A stretch of DNA of 64,000 nucleotides from Candidatus Enterousia sp. (GTDB lineage: Bacteria; Pseudomonadota; Alphaproteobacteria; Rs-D84), in assembly GCA_045587125.1 (NCBI GenBank), contig JAZNBN010000016.1, positions 32,728 through 96,727 of the forward strand, given 5' to 3'. The notes beneath the pieces are model-generated. The model was not told where the DNA came from. It did not search any database and worked only from the letters and a program-made list of their open reading frames with translations. Numbering within the stretch: position 1 is the first letter of the stretch; each line of letters begins with the position of its first letter. Position numbers and translations under genes: made by a program. Positions 363 to 57,985 of this stretch are shown in pieces.

Positions 363-1925
363 ATGGTTCAGTATATGAATAATAATTCTGGTTTTAATCA
401 GTGGAACGCTAATAAAAATGCAGCCGCTAAAAAGGGTGGTTTTTCTGGTTTTTTGTGGTGGATGTTAATGTTTTTCATCGCATGGTGGGCAATTGGTGCG
501 ATAATGTCCCCCAAACAAAATGTTGATAACGTTGCGACCCAAGTTTCAACGGTTGATTTATCTGGGGTTCCTGTAACGCATATATCATCTGATGTTTTGA
601 ATACATCTGTCCAGGGTTTACGCGTATCAAATGCGAAATTGGCAAATTATAAAGTAACCCCAGAATCCGAAGAATTGGTTACATTGTTTGGCGGTGATGA
701 TAATTATATCGAGGTTGGATTATTGTCCAGTGGCACCAACGCCCCAATTGCAACAACTGTATGGCGTAACCAAGATGGTGCATACACATGGCGTAATTCA
801 GACGGTATTGATTTTAAACGCACAATAAATATTGATGGCTACGTTATAAAAATCCAAGACACAATTACAAATAAATCTGGTCAAGACGTTGCATTTGCGC
901 CATACGCACATATTGTTCGTGAAAATGATATGAAATCTGCATCTGGTACAACTAATGGTGCGATATCATATGTCAATTCTGATGTTGAAGATATTCCATG
1001 GCATAAATTAGATAAAAAAGCATACGCATATTCAACAACACATGGTTTTTCTGGGTTTGCAGACCAATATTGGGAAACAGTCGCATCTATTGACAGTCCT
1101 GATCAAACAATCCGCATAAAAAAGTCTGGCGATAAATATATTTCTGATATATCTGCTGCGGCTGTATCTGTACCGGCGGGCCAGACAGGCACAGTTACAA
1201 CAAATATCTTTGTTGGCCCCCGTGATCAGAAAATATTAGACACCGCAGAAAGCCATATTGTTGGACTTGGTGAAACAATAGATTATGGTTGGTTTTGGTT
1301 TTTGGCGCGTCCAATGTTGTGGGTTTTAAATGGGATACATTCTGTTGTTATGAATTATGGTGTTGCGATTATCATAATGACAATATTGTTGCGTTTATTG
1401 ATGTGGCCATTGACCCGTAAATCATACACATCAATGGCTGCTATGCAAAAGATGCAACCTGAAATGCAACGCATTCAGAAATTGTACGGCAATGATAAAA
1501 TGCGCATGCAAATGGAAATGATGAAATTGTACCAAGAACATAAAACATCCCCGATGTCTGGCTGTCTGCCAATGTTGATTCAAATACCAATATTCTTTGC
1601 ATTGTACAAGGCATTATTGGTATCTGTTCAAATGCGCAGTGCACATTTCTTGTGGATATCTGATTTATCTGCGATGGATCCATATTTTATATTACCAATA
1701 TTAATGGGTGCAACAATGTGGTTACAACAACGTCTGCAATCCGGTGCGAAAAAGATAGCAAATGGTAATGACGCGGTTGCCCAAACGCAAAAGATGATGC
1801 AGTGGATGCCGATATTATTCACGATAATGTTTGCATGGATGCCAGCCGGCTTGGTTTTATATTGGACGGTATCAAATATCTTTGGCATTATTCAGATGGA
1901 AATAATAAAAAAGCAAAGCAAATAA
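363..1925 (+). CDS. yidC: Membrane protein insertase YidC
   Basis: 520-aa ORF with an N-terminal TM, a large periplasmic domain and a C-terminal multi-TM core (MQKMQPEMQRIQKLYGNDKMRMQMEMMKLYQEHKTSPMSGCLPMLIQIPIFFALY) characteristic of YidC/Oxa1. Start could be 363 or 375. Confidence 0.9.
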   Translation: MVQYMNNNSGFNQWNANKNAAAKKGGFSGFLWWMLMFFIAWWAIGAIMSPKQNVDNVATQVSTVDLSGVPVTHISSDVLNTSVQGLRVSNAKLANYKVTPESEELVTLFGGDDNYIEVGLLSSGTNAPIATTVWRNQDGAYTWRNSDGIDFKRTINIDGYVIKIQDTITNKSGQDVAFAPYAHIVRENDMKSASGTTNGAISYVNSDVEDIPWHKLDKKAYAYSTTHGFSGFADQYWETVASIDSPDQTIRIKKSGDKYISDISAAAVSVPAGQTGTVTTNIFVGPRDQKILDTAESHIVGLGETIDYGWFWFLARPMLWVLNGIHSVVMNYGVAIIIMTILLRLLMWPLTRKSYTSMAAMQKMQPEMQRIQKLYGNDKMRMQMEMMKLYQEHKTSPMSGCLPMLIQIPIFFALYKALLVSVQMRSAHFLWISDLSAMDPYFILPILMGATMWLQQRLQSGAKKIANGNDAVAQTQKMMQWMPILFTIMFAWMPAGLVLYWTVSNIFGIIQMEIIKKQSK

Positions 1926-1940
1926 ACACCATAAAACTTG

Positions 1941-1972
1941 AAATCCCCTTTGTTCATAAAAGGGGATTTTAA
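1941..1972 (+). terminator. Rho-independent terminator after yidC
   Basis: Hairpin AAATCCCCTT / AAGGGGATTT with a 9-nt loop, followed by T-rich sequence. Confidence 0.7.
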
Positions 1973-1997
1973 ATTGGCAAAAAAGATAAATATTTTG

Positions 1998-2025
1998 TTG
2001 ACAAATTGTGTATTTAGTATATACT
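1998..2025 (+). promoter_or_regulatory. Candidate sigma70 promoter
   Basis: TTGACA (1998-2003), 16-nt spacer, TATACT (2020-2025), about 35 nt upstream of the 2059 start. Confidence 0.5.
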
Positions 2026-2058
2026 ATATGTAGTATAACAGATAAAAAAGGAATTAAT

Positions 2059-2346
2059 ATGAAAAAAGATTTAAAGCATAGAATGGTAAATATGGCGCCA
2101 AAGGCATTGTTTGGTCTTGCTGTTGCATTGACGTTGATTAGTTGTGATGCAGAACCAAGCCCAAGTGATTTAGCGTATATGTCGCCAAGTGAACGATATG
2201 GATATGAAAATTACGGTTCTGTTCCTGATGATATTACAGAAAAAGCACAAGCAAAGCAAAGGGCAACTGCATTATTTATTTTGGGTCTTGGAAGTGCGGT
2301 TGGTGCAGGTTGGGTTATTGGCAGCAAGAATAAAAAATCACGCTAA
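2059..2346 (+). CDS. Small putative lipoprotein with C-terminal TM helix (hypothetical)
   Basis: ATG at 2059 preceded by AAAAAGGAA. Signal peptide ends in the lipobox-like LTLISC. C-terminal hydrophobic stretch plus KNKKSR. No family recognised. Confidence 0.5.
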   Translation: MKKDLKHRMVNMAPKALFGLAVALTLISCDAEPSPSDLAYMSPSERYGYENYGSVPDDITEKAQAKQRATALFILGLGSAVGAGWVIGSKNKKSR

Positions 2347-2366
2347 ATTTAATTTGTACTAAATGA

Positions 2367-2391
2367 AAATCCCCCGTGTGGGGGATTTTTT
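2367..2391. terminator. Bidirectional rho-independent terminator
   Basis: AAAATCCCCC-GTGT-GGGGGATTTTTT sits between convergent genes. The same core recurs at 4246-4275. Confidence 0.75.
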
Positions 2392-3181
2392 ATTCAACCA
2401 ATTTCCAACCAGTGAATGTATAACCAGGTCTAACAGGGTCTTCTGGCATTGTGATTTCTTGGTTATAATCACATACACTTTGAAAAGTGTCATATCCGTT
2501 ATCTGGATTCCAATTAATATTGATTGTGTTTTCCACACATATTCCATTATCAACACGATATCCAGACGCGCACTTGGTCGCAACACATGTGTCAATTCCT
2601 GTGCCGTAATAATCTTTGCCCGCAAATTCAATCGCATTATCAATATTTAAATTTGCGGGGATACAGGACATATAACATTGTGAATCAGATGATGCAGCCG
2701 TTTCAGAACCGATATAACCATCTGGGCATGGATTTAAACCTTGGTCATTATATTCATTAAATGTGTACGTACCCCCAGGACAATAATAACCAGCCAAACA
2801 TTGGGTGCAAGAATCAACATTAGCCGGCAAATAATATCCCGGTTCACAATCATGAATATTTGGTGTGTAAATTGCGTGTATTTCAGGCAGAAAATTCACT
2901 GCACAAACATTATTCATTGTTGTTGCGGTATTGTCTATCATATATAGTCCCTGGTATTCGTCTGGATTAAATTCAAAGGTTCCACCAGGGCAATTAAAAC
3001 CAGACGGACAGGCGACACACCCCAATGTATTTGCCGGTAAAAAGTATCCAGCCGCACAATCATATTTGTTTATTTGATACAATGCAATATACTCATTATA
3101 ATTTATATCGCATATACTAATATCAGCCAACGCAAACTGCGTAATAAAAATAAATAATAAAGATGCGAATAATTTATTCAT
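2390..3181 (-). CDS. Secreted Cys-rich repeat protein with C-terminal GYTFTGW (Listeria-Bacteroides/Flg_new-like) module
   Basis: Signal peptide MNKLFASLLFIFITQFALA. Two CxxGYxLPANxxxCxxCxxGxxCPGGT repeats. C-terminal NTININWNPDNGYDTFQSVCDYNQEITMPEDPVRPGYTFTGWKLVE is shared with 24417-25559 and 53942-55321. Confidence 0.75.
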   Translation of the reverse strand: MNKLFASLLFIFITQFALADISICDINYNEYIALYQINKYDCAAGYFLPANTLGCVACPSGFNCPGGTFEFNPDEYQGLYMIDNTATTMNNVCAVNFLPEIHAIYTPNIHDCEPGYYLPANVDSCTQCLAGYYCPGGTYTFNEYNDQGLNPCPDGYIGSETAASSDSQCYMSCIPANLNIDNAIEFAGKDYYGTGIDTCVATKCASGYRVDNGICVENTININWNPDNGYDTFQSVCDYNQEITMPEDPVRPGYTFTGWKLVE

Positions 3182-3184
3182 AAA

Positions 3185-3931
3185 TTATTCACCAATTATC
3201 GGTCCAGCAATAAAATCACCGGTGCCCGCATTATAATAGTACTTATTTTCCACCAAATCATACATACATGGCACACCATTTTTATCCAGCACAGGTATAA
3301 AGTTACGGACCAATGTGCCATTATCATAAATTTTAAAATAATATATCTTAACTTTACCCGCTTCTATACCTGTTGGTCTTTGGTCTGCGAACATTAGCAT
3401 ATTATACGGCGACACAAAATTACCATATTGATGAGCAATTTGAACATACGGGCCATCATTTTTTGAATAATTTATAATGTTTTTATTCCAATCAATAACA
3501 ATCGTATCACCAACCGCAATTGAACCTGTCATATAATTGTTATTAAAATAATTAAAACTCAACTTTTGGTCCCAAGTATAAAGTTCAAATACACGACTAT
3601 TAAAACTTTGACCACTACCAAACATCATTGTTTCATAATTTGTCACGGAATTAAACATCCCCTTGGTTTTTACACCGGTATCTTGATTTGGAATATACCC
3701 CGTATCAATGTATTGTGTGCCAGTACTTTCCAGATATTCTATCTGTATATTGGTTCTCCACCCCTTGAACGTATACCCATATTTTTCTGGGGCGGTGGGT
3801 GGTGTAATATCGTCACCACTTTCACATATGGTTGTATGATATATTGAACCATCAACATACCAATTTATCGTGTGTGCAATTGCAGCGCTACAAACAAAGC
3901 ATAACGATAAAAATAACAATAAACGTTTCAT
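3185..3931 (-). CDS. Secreted protein: N-terminal GYTFKGW module plus beta-rich domain (YLESTGTQYIDTG motif), hypothetical
   Basis: Signal peptide MKRLLLFLSLCFVCSAAIA, then HTINWYVDGS...EKYGYTFKGWRT. GGGGGG Shine-Dalgarno 3 nt before the ATG. The stop lies 3 nt before the start of 2390-3181, so the two genes probably form an operon. Confidence 0.7.
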   Translation of the reverse strand: MKRLLLFLSLCFVCSAAIAHTINWYVDGSIYHTTICESGDDITPPTAPEKYGYTFKGWRTNIQIEYLESTGTQYIDTGYIPNQDTGVKTKGMFNSVTNYETMMFGSGQSFNSRVFELYTWDQKLSFNYFNNNYMTGSIAVGDTIVIDWNKNIINYSKNDGPYVQIAHQYGNFVSPYNMLMFADQRPTGIEAGKVKIYYFKIYDNGTLVRNFIPVLDKNGVPCMYDLVENKYYYNAGTGDFIAGPIIGE

Positions 3932-4168
3932 ATTCCCCCCATAAAGTTTTAAAAACCGTCAAGATTGTGACGGTCGGGGAGTTAGAAAATCATATAAGTT
4001 AAATGACTCTGTGGTTTTTCGGTTGCCCGTATTTTATAACCATCAGCCCCCCGACACAGCGTCAGGGTATGATAACGGCGCAAAAAACACCGAAACATCT
4101 ATTTAACGATGCTTTCGCACCGAACTTATATGGGCTTTCTACAACCCCGAACCCAATCTTGTGGATTC
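3932..4168 (-). promoter_or_regulatory. Long structured 5' leader with terminator-like hairpin just upstream of the RBS
   Basis: About 240 nt lie between the predicted promoter and the 3931 start. On the minus strand there are GC-rich hairpins: CGGTGC-GAAA-GCATCG and CCCTGAC-GCTGT-GTCGGGG. A CCGTCA-CAATCT-TGACGG hairpin followed by TTTTT (plus 3951-3973) sits directly before the GGGGGG SD. Confidence 0.45.
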
Positions 4169-4175
4169 AACGTAT

Positions 4176-4204
4176 ATTATATATGAAAAAAGACATATTT
4201 GCAA
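4176..4204 (-). promoter_or_regulatory. Candidate sigma70 promoter for the 3931-2390 operon
   Basis: Minus strand reads TTGCAA (4199-4204), 17-nt spacer, TATAAT (4176-4181). Confidence 0.55.
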
Positions 4205-4245
4205 ACTTATGAAAAAAAAATTACATGAAAAAACATAGTGCACAT

Positions 4246-4275
4246 AAAAATAATCCCCCGTGTGGGGGATTTTTA
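4246..4275. terminator. Rho-independent terminator
   Basis: AATCCCCC-GTGT-GGGGGATT flanked by A and T runs. It overlaps the stop of 4273-4608. Confidence 0.75.
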
Positions 4276-4608
4276 TTTTATCTCGTTAAACAATGCGTTT
4301 GGGGTTTGAATAAATATGTTACGCATACCAATTGCATGTTTGCAAAATTGTACGCACGTCCATGCACGGCACATATCTAAATCGCGGGGCGTATCGCATG
4401 GCAAATACACAAACCTCCAACCATGTGCCATCAATATTTTTATATCACGCATATTTATTTTGATTTTTGATATATTGTTATGTGACATAAATTGATGTAA
4501 AACCATACCATTCTGATTAACTTCGATTGGTGCACAGTGTTTTAAATTACCACAGAATATCCGTGGCAATATTTTTGATGTTTTGTCTGAAAAAGCAATA
4601 ATAATCAT
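4273..4608 (-). CDS. Hypothetical protein (111 aa)
   Basis: Start moved to the ATG at 4608, which is preceded by AAGGAA. Conserved-looking His (KHCAPIE) and Cys (WTCVQFCKHAIG) positions are faintly reminiscent of permuted papain/NlpC-like folds. Not verifiable here. Confidence 0.5.
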   Translation of the reverse strand: MIIIAFSDKTSKILPRIFCGNLKHCAPIEVNQNGMVLHQFMSHNNISKIKINMRDIKILMAHGWRFVYLPCDTPRDLDMCRAWTCVQFCKHAIGMRNIFIQTPNALFNEIK

Positions 4609-4662
4609 TTTTATTCCTTGGTGTATTTTTTTTGCCACCGGCATGACCGGTGGCACATTTTT

Positions 4663-5004
4663 TTAATCAATCCAACCGCGTTTTTGTGCCGCATCATGCA
4701 GAACATTCATTGCACGATTCCATTGGTCTGCGGCGCGATTTTCATTCCAAATATGTTGATGTGGTGCACGTCTTTTATCGCCAAATTTTTTCATGACCAT
4801 CAATTGTTCGTCGGTCAATTTTCCACACAGATACAGTTTTGTAATCATTGTTTCCACGTCCAGAATTTCGCATGGTCTGCGTGTCTGCATACTGTGCATA
4901 CGTGAAAAATTATTACGCACAGATTTTGAATACAGAAACCAAAACCACATTTGTTCGGCTGATTGAAATTTTTCGACAGATACCATTGTCATAACAGAGT
5001 TCAT
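4663..5004 (-). CDS. Hypothetical protein (113 aa)
   Basis: ATG at 5004 preceded by AAGGAGA. No recognisable motif. Lies just downstream of the virB10 terminators on the same strand. Confidence 0.55.
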   Translation of the reverse strand: MNSVMTMVSVEKFQSAEQMWFWFLYSKSVRNNFSRMHSMQTRRPCEILDVETMITKLYLCGKLTDEQLMVMKKFGDKRRAPHQHIWNENRAADQWNRAMNVLHDAAQKRGWID

Positions 5005-5180
5005 TTTTCTTTCTCCTTTGGTTGTGTTTATTGTTATTGATATATATAGCCTAAGAAAAGATTCCTGTGAAATACTACAACCAATGGTTGAAGTGTGAAT
5101 CGGAAAACAGATTCGGTTTTGTGTTTTGTGTTTTTGATTACGAATCGTTTAATCTTGTCGGTTATATACATAAATGTGAT

Positions 5181-5212
5181 AAAAAAAAGTGCGTAAAATT
5201 ACGCACTAAAAA
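5181..5212 (-). terminator. Rho-independent terminator (second after virB10)
   Basis: Minus strand reads AGTGCGTAA..TTACGCACT hairpin followed by T8. Confidence 0.65.
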
Positions 5213-5256
5213 GTCATGTTTTGTATATGTTTTTTACTTGTGTTTAATCCTTTTGG

Positions 5257-5281
5257 TTATTATATTAAAAAAACCGCCTTG
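5257..5281 (-). terminator. Rho-independent terminator after virB10
   Basis: AAAAAAACCGCC-TTGT-GGCGGTTTT, 12 nt beyond the virB10 stop. Confidence 0.7.
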
Positions 5282-5292
5282 TGGCGGTTTTG

Positions 5293-7686
<2,394 letters not shown>

Positions 7687-22981: not shown

Positions 22982-24040
22982 ATGTCAGAAGATAAGAAAG
23001 TCATAGCAATTGATACCATGGGTGGGGACAAAGGTCCAAACGCTGTATTGGGTGGTATGAATCAGTTTTTGTATCAACATGGCGAAGATGTATTTTTTCG
23101 CATCTTTGGTGATGAAAAGGTATTACGCAAATTATTGGCAAAATATCCACGTGTTGCCCGTAATTGCGAAGTAATCCATGCACCTGGGGTTATCAAGGGA
23201 ACTGATAAAGTAATGGACGTTCTGCGTCATGCCCAAGATACATCTATGTACATGGCAATCAAAGACGTTCGTGAAGGAAAATCTGCCGCGGTTATCAGTG
23301 CTGGTAACACAGGCATGTTGATGTCATTATCTAAATTGGCGTTGAAAACAATTGATGGTATTGCACGTCCTGCGATTACAACAATGTTACCATCTGGGGC
23401 GGGGGACAGCCGTGTTGTCGTTCTGGATTTGGGTGCAAACGTTCAATGTGATGAAAATGTATTGTTTGACTTTGCCGTATTGGGCAGTGTTTATGCCGAA
23501 GTTGTGGGCAAAATGCCAAAACCAAAATTGGGTGTATTAAACATTGGTTCCGAAGAAACCAAGGGCAATGAAACATTGGTCCATTTGAATAAAGTTCTGA
23601 CAGAAAATAAAGATGAATTGCCATACGAATACATCGGTTTTGTAGAGGCAAATGATATCAGTGCGGGTAAGGTTCAGGTTGTTGTGACCGACGGCTTTAC
23701 TGGCAATATCGTATTGAAAACGGTTGAAGGTACCGCAAAATTAATTAAACGTGTTATCGTTGAAAATTTCAAGAAATCTGTTTTGGCGATAATGGGTGCT
23801 TTTTTCTTGGTACACGTATTTAAACGTTTAAAGAATAAAATTGACCCACGTTCTTATGCCGGTGCGACATTTTTGGGATTGCGTGGTTTTGCGTTTAAAA
23901 CACATGGGAACAGTGATGCATTGGCATTTGCAAATGCGATAAAATATGCATTTGATTTGACCAAGGCAAACCTTAATGGATTAATAGAAGAACGTGCACG
24001 TGCACTGGCCACGGTCCGTGCAAAATTACAAGAAGAATAA
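22982..24040 (+). CDS. plsX: Phosphate acyltransferase PlsX
   Basis: 352 aa. IAIDTMGGDKGPN, SAGNTGMLM and VTDGFTGNIVLKTVEG. Confidence 0.93.
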   Translation: MSEDKKVIAIDTMGGDKGPNAVLGGMNQFLYQHGEDVFFRIFGDEKVLRKLLAKYPRVARNCEVIHAPGVIKGTDKVMDVLRHAQDTSMYMAIKDVREGKSAAVISAGNTGMLMSLSKLALKTIDGIARPAITTMLPSGAGDSRVVVLDLGANVQCDENVLFDFAVLGSVYAEVVGKMPKPKLGVLNIGSEETKGNETLVHLNKVLTENKDELPYEYIGFVEANDISAGKVQVVVTDGFTGNIVLKTVEGTAKLIKRVIVENFKKSVLAIMGAFFLVHVFKRLKNKIDPRSYAGATFLGLRGFAFKTHGNSDALAFANAIKYAFDLTKANLNGLIEERARALATVRAKLQEE

Positions 24041-24064
24041 AAATCCCCTTGTGGGATTTTTTTA
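24039..24064 (+). terminator. Rho-independent terminator after plsX (also the 5' edge of the duplicated cassette)
   Basis: AAATCCC-CTTGT-GGGATTT plus T-run. Homologous to 53727-53752. Confidence 0.7.
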
Positions 24065-24129
24065 TTTATGATAAAATTCACGTAACAGGGAAAAACGAAG
24101 GAAAAAATGATAGAATTTCGCAGAAATCT

Positions 24130-24153
24130 AGAGAGAGAGAGAGAGAGAGAGAG
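24130..24153 (+). repeat. (AG)12 dinucleotide tract
   Basis: Counted directly: AGAGAG... for 24 nt. The paralogous position 53820-53833 has (AG)7. Confidence 0.95.
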
Positions 24154-24193
24154 TTAAAAACATTTAACGCAAACCGTGTTTGCGTGTATGAAT

Positions 24194-24234
24194 AAACACC
24201 CAATGGTGCGTTGCGCCATTGGGTGTTTGTTTTG
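24194..24234 (+). terminator. Leader terminator-like hairpin, copy 1
   Basis: Perfect 13-bp stem AAACACCCAATGG / CCATTGGGTGTTT, 9-nt loop, then GTTTTG. Confidence 0.5.
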
Positions 24235-24273
24235 AAACGAAAGGAACAGATATAGAACAAAGCACTTAATAAA

Positions 24274-24381
24274 CCTTGTCATTGCGAGGGGTGTTAACCC
24301 CGTGGCAATCCAGTGAATCGTGCTTTGTTATACTAAGGCCAAATTAACTGGATTGCCGCGCTATCGCTCGCAATGACAAGG
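24274..24381. mobile_element. MITE-like palindromic element inserted in the leader
   Basis: Perfect 15-bp terminal inverted repeats CCTTGTCATTGCGAG / CTCGCAATGACAAGG. Inner 11-bp IR GGCAATCCAGT / ACTGGATTGCC. Small GGGGT-GTTA-ACCCC hairpin. Absent from the paralogous leader at 53753-53941. Confidence 0.5.
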
Positions 24382-24416
24382 AAGCAAACAAAAAAACAAA
24401 AGAAAGGACGGGAGAT

Positions 24417-25559
24417 ATGAAAAAATATTTTTTAACCACCGCATTAATGGGAACGTTTATTGCACCTGCATTCGGTGCCGATAAAATAATAACCAGTGCG
24501 AATACATGTACATTTGACGTATTGGGTGTGCATGAAAATGATTCAACTGCAAACACAATAGCGACATGGGATTTGATAGATTATACATTGAATCCAGGGC
24601 AATACTTAAACGTAACAGAAACATCTGTGGACAAAACAACATGTCCCGCGGGTTCATATTGCGTTGGTGGTGGTTATACAGTTGAAACGGCGGACAACAG
24701 TATCGCCCAATGTCCGGCGGAATACCCGAACAGTGCCGAAGGTGCGGGTGCGGATACACAATGTTACACGGCATGTACGCTTAATATGGTTCCAAAGGCA
24801 AAGGCAGTTACCGGTAATGATTATTATGGCAATGGCACAGATACATGCGAACCAACGGCATGCGTTGCCGGTTGGCATGTAAAACCTGGATTAACCCTGA
24901 CAGAAATAATAGGTGAAGAAGCAGGTACTAACAGGGCACATATAAGAAACGATGGTTCATTTGACGAGGTTGATTTTGGTGGAGGTATCAAAGGCCAAGA
25001 ATATTATGGTATCAGTGGCAAAAATAGTTTTGCAGTAGATTATGCAGGTAAAGGTATGTTGACCGGCCATGGCCGTTGCAGCACGCAACCAGGGGTAAGA
25101 GAATTTGACTGGCCAACAGAGACTGGTGGAGAAATAACCGTTGTAAACAACCTGACCGATGAAACGGGTCAGGAAGGTGCGAAGTATTGTTATTGTCAGG
25201 TTGATGGTTTTACGCCAACGGGTGGCGACAAAGTAATAGTTACATCGGCCCCTTGGGTGTACTCAGACAACTCCAACGGCTCGGCAGATTATTGTGTTGA
25301 CAATTGTGCAGGATCCTGTGGTATCGCATTGGTTAATGACGTTGTAATCAATCTTCATTTACGTGCAGTGATGTTTGAAGCGATCGGATCAATAACACCT
25401 GCAACATGCGCCGCCAACACAATAAATATCGACTGGAATCCGGATAATGGTGGTGAACATACAGTTAATCAGTGTACATACGAAGGTAGTATTGAATTGC
25501 CAACCCCAGACCCAGTTAAACCTGGATATACATTTACGGGTTGGAAGTTGGTGGATTAA
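24417..25559 (+). CDS. Secreted Cys-rich modular protein with C-terminal GYTFTGW module (family member)
   Basis: Signal peptide MKKYFLTTALMGTFIAPAFG. The N-terminal ~120 aa are colinear with 53942-55321. The ~170-aa centre is unique. C-terminal NTINIDWNPDNGGEHTVNQCTYEGSIELPTPDPVKPGYTFTGWKLVD. Confidence 0.8.
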   Translation: MKKYFLTTALMGTFIAPAFGADKIITSANTCTFDVLGVHENDSTANTIATWDLIDYTLNPGQYLNVTETSVDKTTCPAGSYCVGGGYTVETADNSIAQCPAEYPNSAEGAGADTQCYTACTLNMVPKAKAVTGNDYYGNGTDTCEPTACVAGWHVKPGLTLTEIIGEEAGTNRAHIRNDGSFDEVDFGGGIKGQEYYGISGKNSFAVDYAGKGMLTGHGRCSTQPGVREFDWPTETGGEITVVNNLTDETGQEGAKYCYCQVDGFTPTGGDKVIVTSAPWVYSDNSNGSADYCVDNCAGSCGIALVNDVVINLHLRAVMFEAIGSITPATCAANTINIDWNPDNGGEHTVNQCTYEGSIELPTPDPVKPGYTFTGWKLVD

Positions 25560-25694
25560 AATAAATTATAATAATTCATCTGCCCGCGGTACCGGCAACT
25601 CATGTAACATTTGTACACTACGTTGCCGGCACCACGTGCATCTAAATCATTCTAATTCATTTTGTGGATATGATATATTCAGTTTCCCGTCCCT

Positions 25695-25721
25695 AAAATC
25701 CTCCAAGTGGGGGATTTTTTT
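25695..25721 (+). terminator. Rho-independent terminator (3' edge of cassette 1)
   Basis: AAAATCCTCC-AAGT-GGGGGATTTTTTT. Homologous to 55347-55373. Confidence 0.7.
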
Positions 25722-25734
25722 ATATGATTTTTAC

Positions 25735-51322: not shown

Positions 51323-53728
51323 ATGGCAACATTGACACTTGGAAAATCTGTAACAACTGATGCAGTTCGCAGCAAAAAAGGCGACGCGGTCTTTGTAGAA
51401 CGTCGTCGTCGTGTTGTTGCCCCAGGCAGCAAAGAATTGCGTGATGAACCAACTGCGCCAAGCGCGCCAAAAAACGCAGCAGATGAAAAATTGCGTGCGG
51501 TTTTGGCGGCTGCCAAGGCACGTGAAGAAGAACGTAAAAAACGTGAAGCCGAAGAAGAGGCCGCACGTGCTGCACGTGCTGCGGAAATTGAACGCGAAAC
51601 ACGTGAATACGAACATGTCAAAGAACAATTGGCTGCACGTGAAAACGCACCTGTTGCGGATAATGCAGAAGAAAATGTTGCCACGCCACGTCCGCAAAAA
51701 CATGCATCACAACCAAAAGTTTTTACAAATAATGCCACGCCAAATACAGGGCGCAAAAATCGTGATAATGACGAAGATGACAATCGTTCTTCACGCTTTG
51801 GAAATTCCAAGAAAGATTTTAAAAAGACTGGAAAAATTCACCTGCGTGATATTGTTATGGGCGATGGCGAAGACGATGATGAAATCGGTATTCGTGGTGC
51901 AAACCGTCGCCGGTCCGAGGCTTCATTAAAACGTTTCCGTGAAAAGGCACGTGCGGTGTTTACAGTCCCACAAAAGGTTGAACATGTTGTGTCTTTGGGT
52001 GATACGATAACAGTAAAAGATTTGGCGGCTGCAATGGCTGAAAAGGTCGGCAATGTTATCAAAAAACTGATGGAAATGGGAATGATGGTTTCTGTGAATC
52101 AGTCTATTGATGCGGACACTGCGGAATTGATTGCAGGTGAATTTGGTGCGACTGTTAAACGCGTTGATGTTAAACCTTATGCAGATATTTTGGAACGCGA
52201 ACCCAACCCAGAATTGATGACACCACGTGCACCGGTTGTAACGGTTGTAGGTCACGTTGATCATGGTAAAACATCTTTGTTGGACGCATTCCGTAATGCA
52301 AATGTAGCCGCGGGCGAAGCAGGTGGTATTACCCAGCATGTATCTTCGTACGAAGTTAAAACAAAATCTGGTGCGATGATAACATTTTTGGATACGCCGG
52401 GGCATGAAACATTTACAGCAATGCGTGCACGTGGTGCGCAAATGGCAGACATTGTTGTATTGGTTGTTGCGGCAAATGATTCAATCATGCCACAAACGAT
52501 AGAGGCGATTAATCACATTCGTGCGGCCAACGTTCCATTTATTGTTGCGATAAATAAAATTGACTTGCCCGAAGCAAATGCTATGCGTGTAAAAACAGAC
52601 CTGTTGCAACAAGAGGTCCAGGTTGAAGAAATGGGCGGTGATGTTCAATGTGTTGAAATTTCTGCAACCAAGAAAATCGGTCTGGATAAACTGGAAGAAG
52701 CAATTTTATTACAGGCCGAAATGATGGAATTAAAAGCCGACGCAGAAATGCCGGCGGTCGCATACGTGGTAGAGGCGAAACAAGAAAAAGGTCTTGGGGC
52801 GGTTGCAACTGTATTGATGCGTCAAGGTACATTGAAAATTGGTGATGTATTTGTTGTTGGTGAAACATTTGGTCGTGTACGCGGTCTGATAAATTCTGCG
52901 GGTGAACGTGTAAAATCTGTCCGTCCGGGTCAACCTGCGGTTGTTTTGGGATTAAATTCTGTCCCAGGTGCAGGTGATGAATTGCGTGTTATGGAGTCTG
53001 AGGCCCAAACACGCGAAGTTGCGGCATATCGTGCACAAAAAACCAAGGACAAAGCAAATGCAGTTAAACGTTCTTCTTTGGAAGAATTGTTTGCAAAACG
53101 TGATGATAATAAAAAGTTAATTTTGCCAATCATTTTACGTGCAGACGTTCAAGGTTCTGTTGAGGCGATTACAGACATGGTCAAAGACATTGCCACAGAC
53201 AAAGTTGGTGTTGAAATATTGTCTTCTGGGGTTGGTCAAATTACCGAAGGTGATATACGTTTGGCAACGGCATCTGGTGCGGTGATAATTGCATTTAACG
53301 TTCGTGCAGATTCTGTTGTTCGTGATATGGCACGCAGCAATGGTGTTGATATCAGATATCACAGTGTTGTATATCGCATCACAGATGAAATCAAAGAAAT
53401 ACTGTCTGGTAAATTGGCACCTGAAAAGCGTGAAACATTTATCGGATACGCAGACGTTATTGCATTGTTCACAGTGGGCAAAGGCGTACGTGTTGCCGGT
53501 TGTCGCATGACCGAAGGCACGGTTAAAAAAGATGCGTTTGTACGTCTGTTGCGTAACAACGTTGTAATATATGACGGAAAAATCGGACAATTACGTCGTG
53601 AAAAGAACGAAGTAAAAGAAGTATCTGGTGGCGTTGAATTTGGTATGTCTTTTGATAAGTATAATGACTTAAAAGAAGGCGACCGTGTTGAATGTTACGA
53701 GGTTGAAGAAATCCGTGCACAAATATAA
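51323..53728 (+). CDS. infB: Translation initiation factor IF-2
   Basis: Start probably ATG 51323 (the ORF opens with GTG at 51314). G-domain [25 protein letters not shown] and NKIDL. Confidence 0.95.
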
Positions 53729-53752
53729 AAAATCCCCCTTGTGGGGATTTTT
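53727..53752 (+). terminator. Rho-independent terminator after infB (5' edge of cassette 2)
   Basis: AAAAATCCCC-CTTGT-GGGGATTTTT. Confidence 0.7.
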
Positions 53753-53819
53753 AATTTATGATATAATTCACGTAACAGGGAAAAACGAAGGAAAAAATGA
53801 TAAAATTCCGCAGAAATCT

Positions 53820-53833
53820 AGAGAGAGAGAGAG
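53820..53833 (+). repeat. (AG)7 dinucleotide tract
   Basis: Counted directly. Paralogous to the (AG)12 tract at 24130-24153. Confidence 0.95.
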
Positions 53834-53876
53834 TTAAAAACAAATTTTAACGCAAACTACGTTTGCGGTAATGAAT

Positions 53877-53922
53877 AATCACCTTAATGGCATGTCGTGC
53901 CATTAAGGTGATTATTTTTTTA
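53877..53922 (+). terminator. Leader terminator hairpin, copy 2
   Basis: Perfect 16-bp stem AATCACCTTAATGGCA / TGCCATTAAGGTGATT, 5-nt loop, then ATTTTTTT. Ends 20 nt before the start codon. Confidence 0.6.
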
Positions 53923-53941
53923 TAACGAAAAGGAAAGGGAA

Positions 53942-55321
53942 ATGAAAAAATATTTTTTTACAACAGCAATTATTATGGCGACATTCGGCGCATTTGGTGC
54001 GAACGGCACAATTACGGGCGGTGCGGGAACATGTACTTTTGACGTATTGGGTGTATCGGACAATAACGCAACCGCAAATACAATCGCAACATGGACATTG
54101 AACGAATATGAATGCGGTGCTGGTCAATATTTATTAAATTCAGATGGAACATTGAAATGCACAGAATGTCCGGTTGGTTCATATTGCCCGGGTGGTAAAT
54201 TCACGGTTGAATCTGAAAACAATGGTACAAACGCATGTCCAACAGATTATACATCGGACGCGGGTGCAGTGGGTGAAAACGAATGTTATATAGGTTGCGA
54301 ATTGTCTTGCAGTACGAACGTAGAATGTCCACCGCATTCCAATAATTGTACACACAGTGAATTTAAAACCACCGGCAAACAATTTGCGGGCGGCACCTGT
54401 AATGCATACCCCAGTGTGTGCCCAATCAATGATTTTCAGTGCGACACGGGGTATAGTAAAACGGAAATGACATTGGATGAGTTTGAAGAGCTGGCGAAGG
54501 CAGATAATGGTTCAGGTCTAATACTTGAGTGTCCCTTGTCTGGAAACGGTTTGTCAGAGAATGATAATATAGACGATTGTAAATTTTTACGTCCCGGTGA
54601 AATTATGATACTTTCCGGCAAATTTTATGCTATTTTTATTGAGGTGGCTTTGAATGATTATTCGATTGATACACCAGGTATTGTGACAAAAAAAATACAA
54701 CAAGTTTCACCGTACGATGATGAGTATGTTACGTTCGCATATTTACCAAATGCGAATTTTAATCTTGGGGGTAATGGACAACAAATGTGGGCAAGGTATT
54801 CAAAAGTCGCTATTCCGGGGCCCGACACAATGGTTTATTTAGGAATGGCGGAACAAGGGTTTGAAACAGAAGACGAAATGATGGTTTATCTGCAACAAAA
54901 TTTATCCCCAGCCGCATGGGAAAGTTTTAATTCTTTAATGACTCGGGGAGATCAAGAATCTATGTTTGAATGGATGTTATCTACAATGAATATTATTTCA
55001 GTAGACATGCCTTGGGTGACTTCGGATAAACAAGAGTATTTGCAATCTCTTGAAACCAAGTTGTATTCTGTGGTGATACTTGATGCGTTCGGAGATGAAC
55101 ACGTAAGCGAAGACTTTATGAAAGATTTAGAAGAATCAAGAAATTCAGTATCGTACTGTGCAGCCAACACAATCAATATTGATTGGAACCCAGATAATAA
55201 TGGCGAACATATCAAAAATATGTGTACGTATGATGGCAGTATTACTGTTCCATCCGATCCAGTTAAACCAGGGTATACATTTACCGGTTGGAAGTTACTG
55301 GAAGAAACCACAACCGAATAA
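53942..55321 (+). CDS. Secreted Cys-rich modular protein with C-terminal GYTFTGW module (family member)
   Basis: Signal peptide MKKYFFTTAIIMATFGAFG. N-terminal module GAGTCTFDVLGVSDNNATANTIATW...CPVGSYCPGGKFTVE. Unique ~260-aa centre. C-terminal NTINIDWNPDNNGEHIKNMCTYDGSITVPSDPVKPGYTFTGWKLLE. Confidence 0.8.
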   Translation: MKKYFFTTAIIMATFGAFGANGTITGGAGTCTFDVLGVSDNNATANTIATWTLNEYECGAGQYLLNSDGTLKCTECPVGSYCPGGKFTVESENNGTNACPTDYTSDAGAVGENECYIGCELSCSTNVECPPHSNNCTHSEFKTTGKQFAGGTCNAYPSVCPINDFQCDTGYSKTEMTLDEFEELAKADNGSGLILECPLSGNGLSENDNIDDCKFLRPGEIMILSGKFYAIFIEVALNDYSIDTPGIVTKKIQQVSPYDDEYVTFAYLPNANFNLGGNGQQMWARYSKVAIPGPDTMVYLGMAEQGFETEDEMMVYLQQNLSPAAWESFNSLMTRGDQESMFEWMLSTMNIISVDMPWVTSDKQEYLQSLETKLYSVVILDAFGDEHVSEDFMKDLEESRNSVSYCAANTINIDWNPDNNGEHIKNMCTYDGSITVPSDPVKPGYTFTGWKLLEETTTE

Positions 55322-55346
55322 TATTCAGTTTCATCTTCCTGAACCT

Positions 55347-55373
55347 GAAATCCCCCAAGTGGGGGATTTTTTT
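55347..55373 (+). terminator. Rho-independent terminator (3' edge of cassette 2)
   Basis: GAAATCCCCC-AAGT-GGGGGATTTTTTT. Confidence 0.7.
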
Positions 55374-55444
55374 GCGTTTGTAATTTTTTTGTTAAATATC
55401 TATAATGCGTGTGTCCAATATATAAATACCAAGGAAAAAAAGAA

Positions 55445-55966
55445 ATGAAAAAAAGTTTAATATCTATGTTCGTTATGGCAATGTTGCCGTTCGCGGGTAA
55501 TGCTGCAATGCCTTTTGTTGGTACATATCAAACAATTGACGATGAAACAAATTTACCAAAATCAATTGTGCAAATATACGAATACCAAGACGGTGATGAT
55601 ACAGAAATTGCCGGTCGTATTATCGCACTGTATAACGAACATGGCGAATTATCTGAAACATTAAATAATCCAACACGTGTTGCAGATAAAGTATCCGGTA
55701 AACCAAAATATGTAGGTCTGGATATTATTTGGGATATGGAATTGGATTCAGATGATAATGAATACGGTGGCGGAAAAATTATGGACCCAAAATCTGGCAA
55801 AGTGTACAGCAGTGTTATATGGCAAGAAACACCGACTGTATTAAAGGTTCGTGGCAAAATTGGACCTTTTGGTCGTACACAAAATTGGAATGTAATAGAT
55901 GTGCAAACTTTGCCGTCTGAATTGCATAATTTGGATACCAGCAAATGGACCCCAATTAAACATTAA
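55445..55966 (+). CDS. DUF2147-like periplasmic protein
   Basis: Start ATG 55445, signal peptide present. GGGKIMDPKSGKVYSSVIW...LKVRGKIGPFGRTQNW matches the DUF2147 pattern as I recall it. Confidence 0.55.
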   Translation: MKKSLISMFVMAMLPFAGNAAMPFVGTYQTIDDETNLPKSIVQIYEYQDGDDTEIAGRIIALYNEHGELSETLNNPTRVADKVSGKPKYVGLDIIWDMELDSDDNEYGGGKIMDPKSGKVYSSVIWQETPTVLKVRGKIGPFGRTQNWNVIDVQTLPSELHNLDTSKWTPIKH

Positions 55967-55992
55967 AAAAATGCCCCAACGGGGCATTTTTT
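55965..55992. terminator. Bidirectional terminator
   Basis: AAAAAAATGCCCC-AAC-GGGGCATTTTTT. Confidence 0.75.
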
Positions 55993-55993
55993 A

Positions 55994-57985
55994 TTACCAC
56001 AGTTTTACACGTTTTTCTGGTTCTATGTACAGATAATCGCCTGGTTTAATATTAAATGCGTCATACCATGCGTTTATATGTGGCAATATTCCATTTACTC
56101 GGTTTTTTGCCAAAGAATGTTCGTCAACCTTGGTTAAACGCAGTTCTTCGGCACTGCGAATGTTTTGTGCCCATACGCCTGCGTATGCGATAAAGAAACG
56201 CATATCAGATGTTAAACCGTAAATTTCATCTGTTGGTGTGCCAAACTTTTTATACGCATCAAACGCAATTGTTACACCGCCATAATCGGCCAGATTTTCG
56301 CCCAATGTAAATTCACCATTTGCATTTACTTCATCATTGATTTTTATTTTGTTGAAAAATTCTTTCATTACATTGGCACGTTCGTTAAAACCGTTTGCGT
56401 CTTCGGGTGTCCACCAATCTTTCATGTTTCCGTCTTTGTCAAAGTTACGGCCGGCATCATCAAATCCATGTGTCATTTCATGACCGATAATTGCACCAAT
56501 TGCCGCATAGTTAAACGCATCGTCTGCATTCATATCAAAAAATGGATATTGTAATATTCCGGCTGGGAAACATATTTCGTTGGTTGATGGATCATAATAC
56601 GCATTTATTTCATGTGCGTTCATATACCAAATTGTTGGATCTTTTTTCTGGCCGATTTTAGCCAACCAAAATTCATCTTCGAATTGTGCAACACGCATCA
56701 TGTTTTCATACAAAGAATCATTTTTGATTTCTAATTTTGAATAATCACGCCATTTATCTGGATAACCAATCTTGGCGGTAAATGTAGATAATTTTTCCAA
56801 TGCCTTGGATTTTGTTTCATCACTCATCCAATCCAGATTTTCAATACGCTGTGCATATGCACGTTGTAAATTTTTAACTAAATTTTGCATACGTTCTTTG
56901 GCAGCGGCTGGGAAATATTCTGCAACATACAGACGACCAATTTCTTCACCCAGTGCACCATCTAACATGGATACAGCACGTTTCCAACGTGGCTTTTGTT
57001 CTTTTTGACCCGCCATTGTACGATTGTAAAAATCAAACGCAATGTCGTATGTTTCGTCGTCCAATACAGAAACTGCACCGGTCGCAATACGATATTTCAA
57101 ATATGTTTTTATCAATTCAAAATCAGTATCGTTCATAATTGCAATTGATTCGGTGATTGCTTCGGGTTGATTGATGTTTATATGTGTTGCATGAGATGCA
57201 CCACGTGCAGCCAAATATTTATCCCAATCAAATCCCGGGAATTTTTCTTTGATTTCATTTATTGACATTTTGTGATAGTTCGCATGTGGGTCACGTAATT
57301 TTTCTTTTGGATAAAAAGATTTTGCCATACGTTCTTCCAATGCGTACAATTTTTCAGTATCAACATTAATGCCAAAATTTTTCATTTGTTTTGTTATAAA
57401 TTCTTTGTATTTTTTGCGAATTTCAACAGACTTTTCATCTGTGTCAAAAAAGTAATCACGTGAAATACCAATGCCACCCTGACCAATGTTGTACAGATAA
57501 TATTCACTGTCTTTTTCGTCCAGTGCAACCCCGTCACCCCAAAAGGCAGATGAAAAACGATGTGATTTTCCCAGATATGTTTCTAAATCTTGGCGTGTCA
57601 GTTTATCTATGGTTGCGATTTTTTCAGCCACAGGTTTTGTTTTGTCGGCATTTAATTTTTCTGCGTCCATTGCAATTTTATACAATGTACCAATTTTGCC
57701 TGTATCTGTTTCTGCAATTTTTTTTGTGCGTTCTTGGTTGACGGTATCCAACACTTCAAAAGAACCATATCTGGCGTAATCATCGGGAATAGGATTTTTT
57801 ACCTGCCAACCGTGTGTTGCGTATTCATAAAAATCATTTCCTGGATTAAAGGCAGGGTCCATGTTCGCAATGTTTATTCCCGGTGTCAATGTTTTCTCCT
57901 TTGTTATGGTTGTTGTTGCTTTTACCAAAATAAGTGTGGTTATTACTGATAAAATTCCAACGATATTCCAAAATGTGCGTTTCAT
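55994..57985 (-). CDS. M13-family zinc metallopeptidase (PepO/endothelin-converting-enzyme-like)
   Basis: 663 aa. HEMTHGFD (HExxH), GENLADYGG (ExxADxGG) and NAYYDP. Confidence 0.88.
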   Translation of the reverse strand: MKRTFWNIVGILSVITTLILVKATTTITKEKTLTPGINIANMDPAFNPGNDFYEYATHGWQVKNPIPDDYARYGSFEVLDTVNQERTKKIAETDTGKIGTLYKIAMDAEKLNADKTKPVAEKIATIDKLTRQDLETYLGKSHRFSSAFWGDGVALDEKDSEYYLYNIGQGGIGISRDYFFDTDEKSVEIRKKYKEFITKQMKNFGINVDTEKLYALEERMAKSFYPKEKLRDPHANYHKMSINEIKEKFPGFDWDKYLAARGASHATHININQPEAITESIAIMNDTDFELIKTYLKYRIATGAVSVLDDETYDIAFDFYNRTMAGQKEQKPRWKRAVSMLDGALGEEIGRLYVAEYFPAAAKERMQNLVKNLQRAYAQRIENLDWMSDETKSKALEKLSTFTAKIGYPDKWRDYSKLEIKNDSLYENMMRVAQFEDEFWLAKIGQKKDPTIWYMNAHEINAYYDPSTNEICFPAGILQYPFFDMNADDAFNYAAIGAIIGHEMTHGFDDAGRNFDKDGNMKDWWTPEDANGFNERANVMKEFFNKIKINDEVNANGEFTLGENLADYGGVTIAFDAYKKFGTPTDEIYGLTSDMRFFIAYAGVWAQNIRSAEELRLTKVDEHSLAKNRVNGILPHINAWYDAFNIKPGDYLYIEPEKRVKLW

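Follow-up and report, generated by a model that had tools for sequence, protein, structure and literature searches.

Why do two distant sites in the genome of an uncultured gut bacterium carry almost the same leader, and what does the AG repeat within it do? The sites lie in a stretch of 64,000 nucleotides (nt) from Candidatus Enterousia sp. (contig JAZNBN010000016.1), referred to here as the window. Enterousia, a member of the alphaproteobacterial order Rs-D84, inhabits farm-animal guts and has a genome of less than 1 Mbp (PMC12306168). At each site, one behind plsX (copy 1) and one behind infB (copy 2), a leader with a run of AG dinucleotides precedes the gene of a secreted, Cys-rich protein. 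The architecture suggests that each leader is probably a phase-variable leader-peptide attenuator, a random on/off switch for the gene behind it, in which the number of AG units would set the frame of a short translated open reading frame (ORF) and with it the fate of a transcription terminator.

The duplication itself is clear. Regions 24039-24240 and 53727-53925 (53729-53925 in MAFFT) are colinear and about 90% identical, and the formal alignment by MAFFT and a repeat finder agrees with the original prediction, which had described them from a hand alignment as colinear and largely identical; the similarity extends beyond the terminators alone. The repeat finder assigned the leader pair to family D4, 105 nt at 92%, followed by D10, with 78% over 45 nt. 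The two copies share, without a mismatch, a 36-nt core, TTCACGTAACAGGGAAAAACGAAGGAAAAAATGATA, which occurs nowhere else in the window and had no match in 100 shuffles. Sequence scans and folding found at both sites each of the parts that had been proposed as shared, namely an AG tract, a palindrome with a 3-nt centre and a terminator-like hairpin. The tracts, (AG)12 at 24130-24153 and (AG)7 at 53820-53833, are the sole dinucleotide repeats of at least five units in the 64 kb; the palindrome TTAACGCAAAC-NNN-GTTTGCG occurs at the two leader sites only; and the leader terminator hairpins (24190-24232 and 53874-53916) have 20-21-bp stems with compensatory changes between the copies. Compared with shuffled sequences, both window leaders fold much more stably (z-scores -5.3 and -5.7). 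Three further points had not been remarked before: the downstream genes are paralogues, copy 1 carries an insert resembling a miniature inverted-repeat transposable element (MITE), and the AG tract lies within a mini-ORF preceded by a Shine-Dalgarno (SD) sequence. The order of parts is the same in both copies, from promoter through the SD sequence and ATG mini-ORF with (AG)n to a first hairpin (hairpin 1), an intrinsic terminator and the ribosome-binding site (RBS) of the gene. The parts are listed below, where n is the number of AG units and the long frame is the reading frame that leads from the tract across hairpin 1.

Copy 2, behind infB:
53728-53752, + strand: infB terminator hairpin, AAAAATCCCCC-TTGT-GGGGATTTTT, from the terminator scan
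53739-53744, + strand: putative -35 box TTGTGG, read from the sequence and compared with the promoters of homologous leaders
53759-53767, + strand: putative extended -10 element TGATATAAT, from sequence and conservation, with transcription predicted to start near 53774
53797-53850, + strand: predicted mini-ORF, MIKFRRNLERERVKNKF and a stop, from frame analysis, with the SD sequence AAGGA at 53788-53792
53820-53833, + strand: (AG)7 inside the mini-ORF, giving the long frame at n = 8, 11 or 14
53851-53867, + strand: hairpin 1, CGCAAAC-TAC-GTTTGCG, from palindrome scan, folding and compensatory changes
53874-53924, + strand: intrinsic terminator with a 20-21-bp stem, a 3-nt loop and a T7 run
53876-53878, + strand: long-frame stop TAA, within the first bases of the terminator 5' arm

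Copy 1, behind plsX:
24039-24061, + strand: plsX terminator hairpin, containing the putative -35 box TTGTGG at 24049-24054
24069-24077, + strand: putative extended -10 element TGATAAAAT, from sequence
24107-24157, + strand: predicted mini-ORF, MIEFRRNLERERERES and a stop, from frame analysis, with the SD sequence AAGGA at 24098-24102
24130-24153, + strand: (AG)12 inside the mini-ORF, giving the long frame at n = 11 or 14
24167-24185, + strand: hairpin 1, ACGCAAAC-CGT-GTTTGCGT, from palindrome scan, folding and compensatory changes
24190-24233, + strand: intrinsic terminator with a 20-bp stem and the tail TTTGTTTTG
24193-24195, + strand: long-frame stop TAA, inside the terminator, from frame analysis

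Several features of the mini-ORF would fit its translation. A purine-rich leader of about 25 nt ends in AAGGA-N5-ATG, and the predicted peptide has the pattern M-x-x-F-R-R-N-L-(E-R)n, the window copies reading MI(E/K)FRRNL followed by (GAG-AGA)n across the tract. In all seven leaders of the frame analysis, the register of CGC-AGA-AAT-CTA-(GAG-AGA)n is opened by an ATG behind an SD sequence, and the N-terminal codons of these seven mini-ORFs vary (MIEF, MIKF, MFKK, MTEI, MLKK, MLKF and MHFYHKN). Read by eye, the leaders of loci L063 and L064 have MAKF and MIKF starts in the same ATG register. Insertions and deletions in the mini-ORF are multiples of three, 9 nt (three extra codons) in locus L057 and 3 nt between the two window spacers. 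As assembled, both window copies are in a short frame: the mini-ORF of copy 2 (n = 7) ends at a TAA directly before hairpin 1 and that of copy 1 (n = 12) 4 nt past the tract. These stops leave 91 nt (copy 2) and 259 nt (copy 1) before the gene ATG; the tracts lie 108 and 263 nt upstream of it, respectively, with the terminator in between. A repeat whose 2-nt unit is not a multiple of three lies in a short ORF with its own RBS, between promoter and gene, as in the pil1 type of leader to which we return below.

We compared ten complete leaders, the two of the window and eight from related gut metagenome contigs (L020, L055, L056, L057, L060, two in L063, and L064). A metagenome scan for GCAGAAATCT(AG)5 yielded five bacterial loci (L054, L055, L056, L057 and L060), L020 came from a genome scan, and L063 and L064 came from contig look-ups. 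All ten leaders obey one rule. Two of the three frames that leave the tract stop 3-21 nt downstream, before hairpin 1, and the third crosses hairpin 1 and stops at the foot of the terminator 5' arm or inside it. Whether the terminator can be blocked by a ribosome would therefore depend on the repeat number. Between lineages there is almost no resemblance in spacer or terminator sequence, nor do all lineages share the repeat class that opens the long frame. As assembled, a short frame is found in copy 1 (n = 12) and copy 2 (n = 7) of the window, the first and second leaders of L063 (n = 9 and 12), L064 (n = 9), L020 (n = 10), L055 (n = 5), L057 (n = 7) and L060 (n = 13), and the long frame in L056 (n = 14). 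The same flanks, with an S8-like protease upstream, surround L056 and L060, which appear to be a single locus seen in two samples; their tracts are one AG unit apart, so their predicted states differ. Tract variants of +2, +3 and at least +8 units occur on metagenome contigs. The samples with the window sequence were analysed as Logan contigs, which break at the tract. Across four sheep and other gut metagenomes, the summed contig depth over the leader was ~2-25 times that over infB, an excess that fits many copies or strains, summed depth not being the same as copy number.

Taken together, these features suggest the following mechanism. Transcription would start at the extended -10 promoter just past the upstream gene, and a ribosome would load at AAGGA-N5-ATG and translate the mini-ORF, reading the tract as (Glu-Arg)n. 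Slipped-strand mispairing in replication would alter n by whole 2-nt units and so shift the ribosome among the three frames. In two of them the ribosome would stop before hairpin 1, the 20-bp terminator would form and the gene would not be transcribed (OFF). In the third it would cross hairpin 1 and stop at the terminator 5' arm, where its footprint would block the terminator and let the polymerase enter the gene (ON). For the window copies ON would need n = 2 mod 3 (8, 11, 14); n = 7 and n = 12 are predicted to be OFF, each one AG unit away from ON.

RNA structure is consistent with this scheme. RNAalifold on the ten leaders recovered both hairpins, with 9 of 23 pairs changed on both sides, and the same terminator position is filled by three unrelated stem sequences. 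Masking a ribosome footprint at the long-frame stop weakened the terminator, which has -29 to -42 kcal/mol when unmasked, to between 0 and -7 kcal/mol, with a remnant structure that no longer abutted the U-run; masking at the short-frame stops left the terminator intact. By eye, no pairing of hairpin 1, the AG tract or the 5' leader with the terminator arms was seen that would make an RNA-only antiterminator, and in free folds both hairpins form independently. An attenuator that senses Arg or Glu codons was rejected, as there is no 2:3 alternative helix. Hairpin 1 has a stem of 7-8 bp and a loop of 3 nt, and we can only infer its role: it may halt RNA polymerase briefly, or synchronise it, and so couple it to the ribosome in the manner of classical attenuators.

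Hairpin 1 is also a perfect DNA palindrome that is kept in all leaders, and a quite different role for it can be imagined. A trans-acting factor might set read-through, either an RNA-binding antiterminator or a DNA-binding dimer at the palindrome, with the AG tract tuning spacing or binding a purine-tract protein and with translation of the mini-ORF irrelevant. Most members of the downstream gene family have a structured leader without a repeat, in which terminator and antiterminator helices compete, so conditional antitermination would be a theme of the family. We nevertheless hold such a factor to be rather improbable at the AG-repeat leaders. The palindrome covaries (CAAAC/GTTTG becomes CGAAC/GTTCG, and GCGCG becomes GCACG together with its partner), which fits an RNA helix better than a protein operator. 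By eye, there is no alternative antiterminator pairing for a bound factor to stabilise, and the conserved SD-ATG, the frame rule and the stop at the terminator foot would be left unexplained.

Where would transcription start? The hairpin at the head of each leader had been taken for the terminator of the upstream gene. It is the neighbour's terminator, and that description is incomplete, for its loop and 3' arm also hold the putative -35 box of the cassette, TTGTGG. Within the upstream terminator, AAAATCCCC(C)TTGTGGGGATTTT, TTGTGG stands exactly 17 nt before TG-A-TATAAT in copy 2 and before TG-A-TAAAAT in copy 1. TGATAtAAT is kept upstream of the leaders in L056, L060 and L063 and of the leaders called type A below, and CCCTTGYGG-N17-TAtAAT precedes family genes in other genomes whether or not the hairpin is present. 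Because the -35 box lies in the hairpin and the same promoter spacing recurs elsewhere, the hairpin would be both the terminator of the neighbour and the -35 region of the cassette. We infer an extended -10 promoter at each leader from this element and its conservation.

Dinucleotide repeats in promoter regions are a known type of switch. A tract that acts as a promoter-spacer or upstream-element repeat and alters initiation, as in Neisseria porA and opc or the Haemophilus hif genes, is very improbable in the Enterousia leaders. In both window copies the tract starts 53 nt past the TATAAT element; it lies 53-58 nt downstream of the only good -10, neither between the hexamers nor immediately upstream of them. 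Any spacer that included the tract would be 22-32 nt long, which is unworkable, and a transcript begun there would comprise hairpin 1 and the terminator only.

The AG-repeat module was also seen in two other settings. At L054:1139-1403 (minus strand), GCAGAAATCT(AG)11 forms part of the coding sequence for a secreted Cys-rich protein, immediately ahead of the hydrophobic signal segment. The gene is out of frame as assembled, and n = 10 or 13 would restore it; from its sequence, L054 is a classical translational phase switch, made from the same module in another frame within the signal-peptide coding region. At L056:995-1840 and L060:1202-2045, an AG-repeat leader precedes a different gene, for a 205-residue secreted protein that is rich in Ala, Ser and Thr, coiled-coil-like and without a Pfam match. 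The C-terminus of the following paralogue at L056/L060 has the C-x-C-(K/Q)-x-x-G-F-T motif of the window family.

A simpler explanation starts from the genes. They are paralogous, so shared flanks are expected, and the shared region might be just the duplicated 5' flank of paralogues. The terminator would then either attenuate constitutively or close a separate small transcript with a promoter, a micro-ORF or small RNA and this terminator. The AG tract would count as a neutral microsatellite that switches nothing, and expression of the gene would come from leaky read-through or a weak promoter of its own. TATAAC- or TATAAA-like hexamers follow the U-run in some leaders, and the unchanged tracts of L063 and L064, described below, are what a neutral repeat could also give. 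We think this explanation unlikely. The frame and stop geometry, the in-frame ATG and the multiple-of-three indels are kept though the spacer and terminator sequences are otherwise unrelated, and the module also stands before a different surface-protein gene (L056/L060) and within a coding sequence (L054). Conservation is higher in the leader than in the middle of the coding sequences. The hexamers past the terminator are not conserved: by eye, nothing promoter-like is kept in the interval from terminator to gene, and in copy 1 no such hexamer occurs there.

Some of our observations weigh against the phase-variable attenuator and temper our confidence in it. The long frame is seen in just one of the ten leaders. 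In L063 and L064, from two samples with an identical downstream protein, n is equal at both loci (9 and 12), so the tracts are not changing at every sampling, which calls for caution about very rapid change. Mononucleotide shuffles reproduce the frame geometry in 6-10% of trials per lineage, and these probabilities cannot simply be multiplied because the lineages are homologous and because, in three of four, the long frame crosses hairpin 1 in an unchanged register. Metatranscriptome X43 gave no signal over the window leader; in metatranscriptome X67 the L056 locus was represented by the 5' end of the gene only, with nothing informative over the leader beyond 31-mers of the tract; and the raw-read runs X70 and X71 contributed 1-2 reads only. 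A strict sigma-70 consensus scan of both leaders called no promoter, at copy 2 because the -35 box matches at just 3 of 6 positions. Lastly, the palindromic insert of copy 1 may uncouple the gene from its leader or block it.

The genes behind the leaders, with their 3' ends and this insert, are as follows.

53942-55321, + strand: copy 2 gene, for a 459-residue secreted Cys-rich protein with a C-terminal Flg_new domain (PF09479), with the RBS GGAAAGGG just upstream
55347-55373, + strand: copy 2 3' terminator hairpin, in repeats D3 and D7, kept in homologous loci and family-wide
24417-25559, + strand: copy 1 gene, for a 380-residue secreted Cys-rich paralogue with a C-terminal Flg_new domain
25695-25721, + strand: copy 1 3' terminator hairpin, in repeat D3 and family-wide
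24274-24382, no strand: palindromic MITE-like repeat of ~110 nt, in copy 1 only, between the leader terminator and the gene RBS

Both genes encode a signal peptide, a Cys-rich body and a partial Listeria-Bacteroides repeat (PF09479) at the C-terminus. The Pfam scores, 27.2 bits for P0001 and 30.2 bits for P0002 against a cut-off of 27, come from the C-terminal 36-41 residues only and denote a partial domain. The original prediction had regarded the cassettes as expression units for variable surface proteins with an elaborate common cis-regulatory region, and the self-contained set of promoter, leader, gene and terminator bears this out for what are secreted proteins. It was also right that both genes end with the same 3' hairpin, which the repeat finder places in family D3 at 84% over 44 nt. 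A protein search found 253 relatives, nearly all from gut metagenomes, and a genome scan found 28 paralogues in one Candidatus Enterousia metagenome-assembled genome (MAG) and single matches in two others, one of which (L030) is 93% identical to window positions 55157-56776. The 3' untranslated region and terminator of the family (window 55322-55374 and 25560-25722; L001:4390-4437) are 84-88% identical between paralogues or species, above the coding middles, which would fit recombination at constant gene ends.

The MITE-like repeat of copy 1 ends in TGTCATTGCGAGG...CTCGCAATGACA, and a 166-nt stretch around it has a folding energy of about -62 kcal/mol. Copies are scattered beside family genes and accompany most family genes of the relative MAG (downstream, L002-L029). 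Related copies gave sub-threshold Rfam matches to Wolbachia WsnRNA46, 32.6-47.3 bits against 65.3. For the leaders themselves Rfam returned no family at the gathering score and, at E up to 10, sub-threshold hairpin matches only. An exact 20-mer of the 5' leader had no match in the contigs of species-representative genomes, and the AG tract pattern had none in viral contigs.

Are the cassettes insertions, as had been proposed from the neighbours? The identification of plsX and of nusA-infB as upstream genes was correct; plsX and rpsA flank site 1, and nusA-infB, a DUF2147 gene and an M13 peptidase gene flank site 2. At the infB site, insertion is doubtful. Another Enterousia species (L014), whose infB is 90% and whose M13 peptidase is 86% identical, has a family gene in the same slot behind a different, structured leader; the post-infB position is therefore a conserved slot with an exchanged leader, and recent insertion there was rejected, as the slot is common to different species. 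Among the fetched loci, no relative has a cassette after plsX.

Other leader types occupy other positions. Upstream of most family genes we found a leader of ~250 nt, here called type A (L006, L010, L011, L014-L018, L021-L026, L066 and L067; alignment A5). In its long-range helix, GGGGUGU and the 4-5 variable nt that follow pair, with perfect covariation, with variable nt and AACCUCC ~150 nt away. The 3' strand of this helix overlaps CCUCCUGACC, which competes with GGUCAGGAGG and with the terminator GACCACUG..CAGUGGUUUUGUUUUU. The type A leader is a true structured RNA, riboswitch-like in design and with three competing helices; it had no Rfam match at E up to 1. Within the window, a third family gene (~2393-3930, minus strand) is preceded by a type C leader (3940-4185, minus strand), in which CCCUGAC..GUCGGGGGG competes with CUCCCCGACCGUCA..UGACGGUUUUU. 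It matches the leaders of L004, L007, L019, L028, L065 and L068, and the L004 copy had a sub-threshold Rfam match to sRNA-Xcc1, 37.5 bits against a gathering score of 53. Window positions 789-5537 are a slot in common with a relative MAG (L016; flanks 83-85% identical), where the cassette has the opposite orientation and a different leader type. Near-identical hairpins AAAATCCCCCGTGTGGGGGATTTT, at 2355-2390 and 4239-4274, bound the same slot, which suggests replacement or inversion of cassettes between hairpin-bounded slots. Separately, phage-like genes (terminase, capsid, nozzle and hydrolase) lie beside a family gene at L067:737-7672, on a 198-kb Enterousia-like contig, and may be a prophage in a reduced genome.

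From these leader types we tentatively outline a two-tier control, acting across the genome, for the large secreted-protein repertoire of Enterousia and its Rs-D84 relatives, a possibility that we hold with less conviction than the attenuator itself. Portable AG-repeat attenuators, with the module used within a coding sequence as well, might gate some paralogues stochastically, and the rest might stand behind the previously undescribed, signal-responsive, ~250-nt structured leader with its three competing helices and strong covariation, the leader types being swapped between species at conserved slots such as that after infB. If so, the scheme would amount to compact antigenic or adhesive variation by transcription attenuation in an uncultured organism of <1 Mbp that is probably host- or partner-dependent. 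For the AG-repeat leaders alone, the state of a paralogue could be read from n mod 3 in metagenomes, a concrete handle on surface variation in a gut bacterium that is uncultured and has <1,000 genes. For annotation it would mean that intact-looking genes behind such leaders may be silent.

How do the AG-repeat leaders compare with known systems? In the trp, his and pheM-pheST attenuators, too, a short translated leader, a possible pause hairpin and a terminator precede the structural gene, and the position of the ribosome is decisive. The Enterousia leaders differ from them in having no 2:3 antiterminator and no run of codons that would sense charged tRNA; the variable is instead a heritable DNA length. 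Classical translational contingency loci, such as Neisseria opa with its CTCTT repeat, likewise use a slippery repeat to switch surface-protein genes by frame, and by its sequence L054 does so with GCAGAAATCT(AG)n. In the window, by contrast, the tracts lie in a separate mini-ORF outside the regulated gene, the in-gene repeat being confined to L054.

The closest parallel is the pil1 pilus locus of Streptococcus gallolyticus, whose leader peptide contains GCAGA repeats. There a short peptide stops 39 bp before the terminator and expression is low, and long peptides stop within or beyond the terminator and expression is high, as was shown by mutagenesis (Danne et al. 2014, PLoS Pathog, PMC3894217). 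The original prediction was not aware of a described regulatory element with this composition; the pil1 phase-variable leader-peptide attenuator fits it (PMC3894217), and in full-text literature searches a terminator switch with a repeat in the leader peptide was found only for the S. gallolyticus pili. Shared with pil1 (and pil3) are the promoter, the RBS-preceded leader ORF with a repeat that is not a multiple of three, the premature stem-loop terminator and the surface-protein genes behind it. The logic would be shared with pil1 as well, here as read from sequence: the repeat number sets the leader frame and the frame sets the stop. A stop well ahead of the terminator would mean low expression, and one inside it or beside it high expression by ribosome-mediated antitermination. 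The differences are equally plain. The two have no sequence homology, and the Enterousia repeat is a dinucleotide, (AG)5-14, whereas that of pil1 is a pentanucleotide, (GCAGA)~22. One frame in three is long in Enterousia, whereas in pil1 frame-shifting gain or loss of repeats gives the longer peptides. The Enterousia leaders have an extra conserved hairpin between repeat and terminator, occur in several copies per genome before a large secreted-protein family, once inside a coding sequence, and belong to a reduced-genome alphaproteobacterium rather than a Gram-positive coccus. Overall, the comparison suggests that they are an independently evolved variant of a rare known design and not a new principle. 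An independent dinucleotide version in a distant lineage, in several copies before a hypervariable secreted-protein family, would make the pil1 design a recurrent one and not a curiosity.

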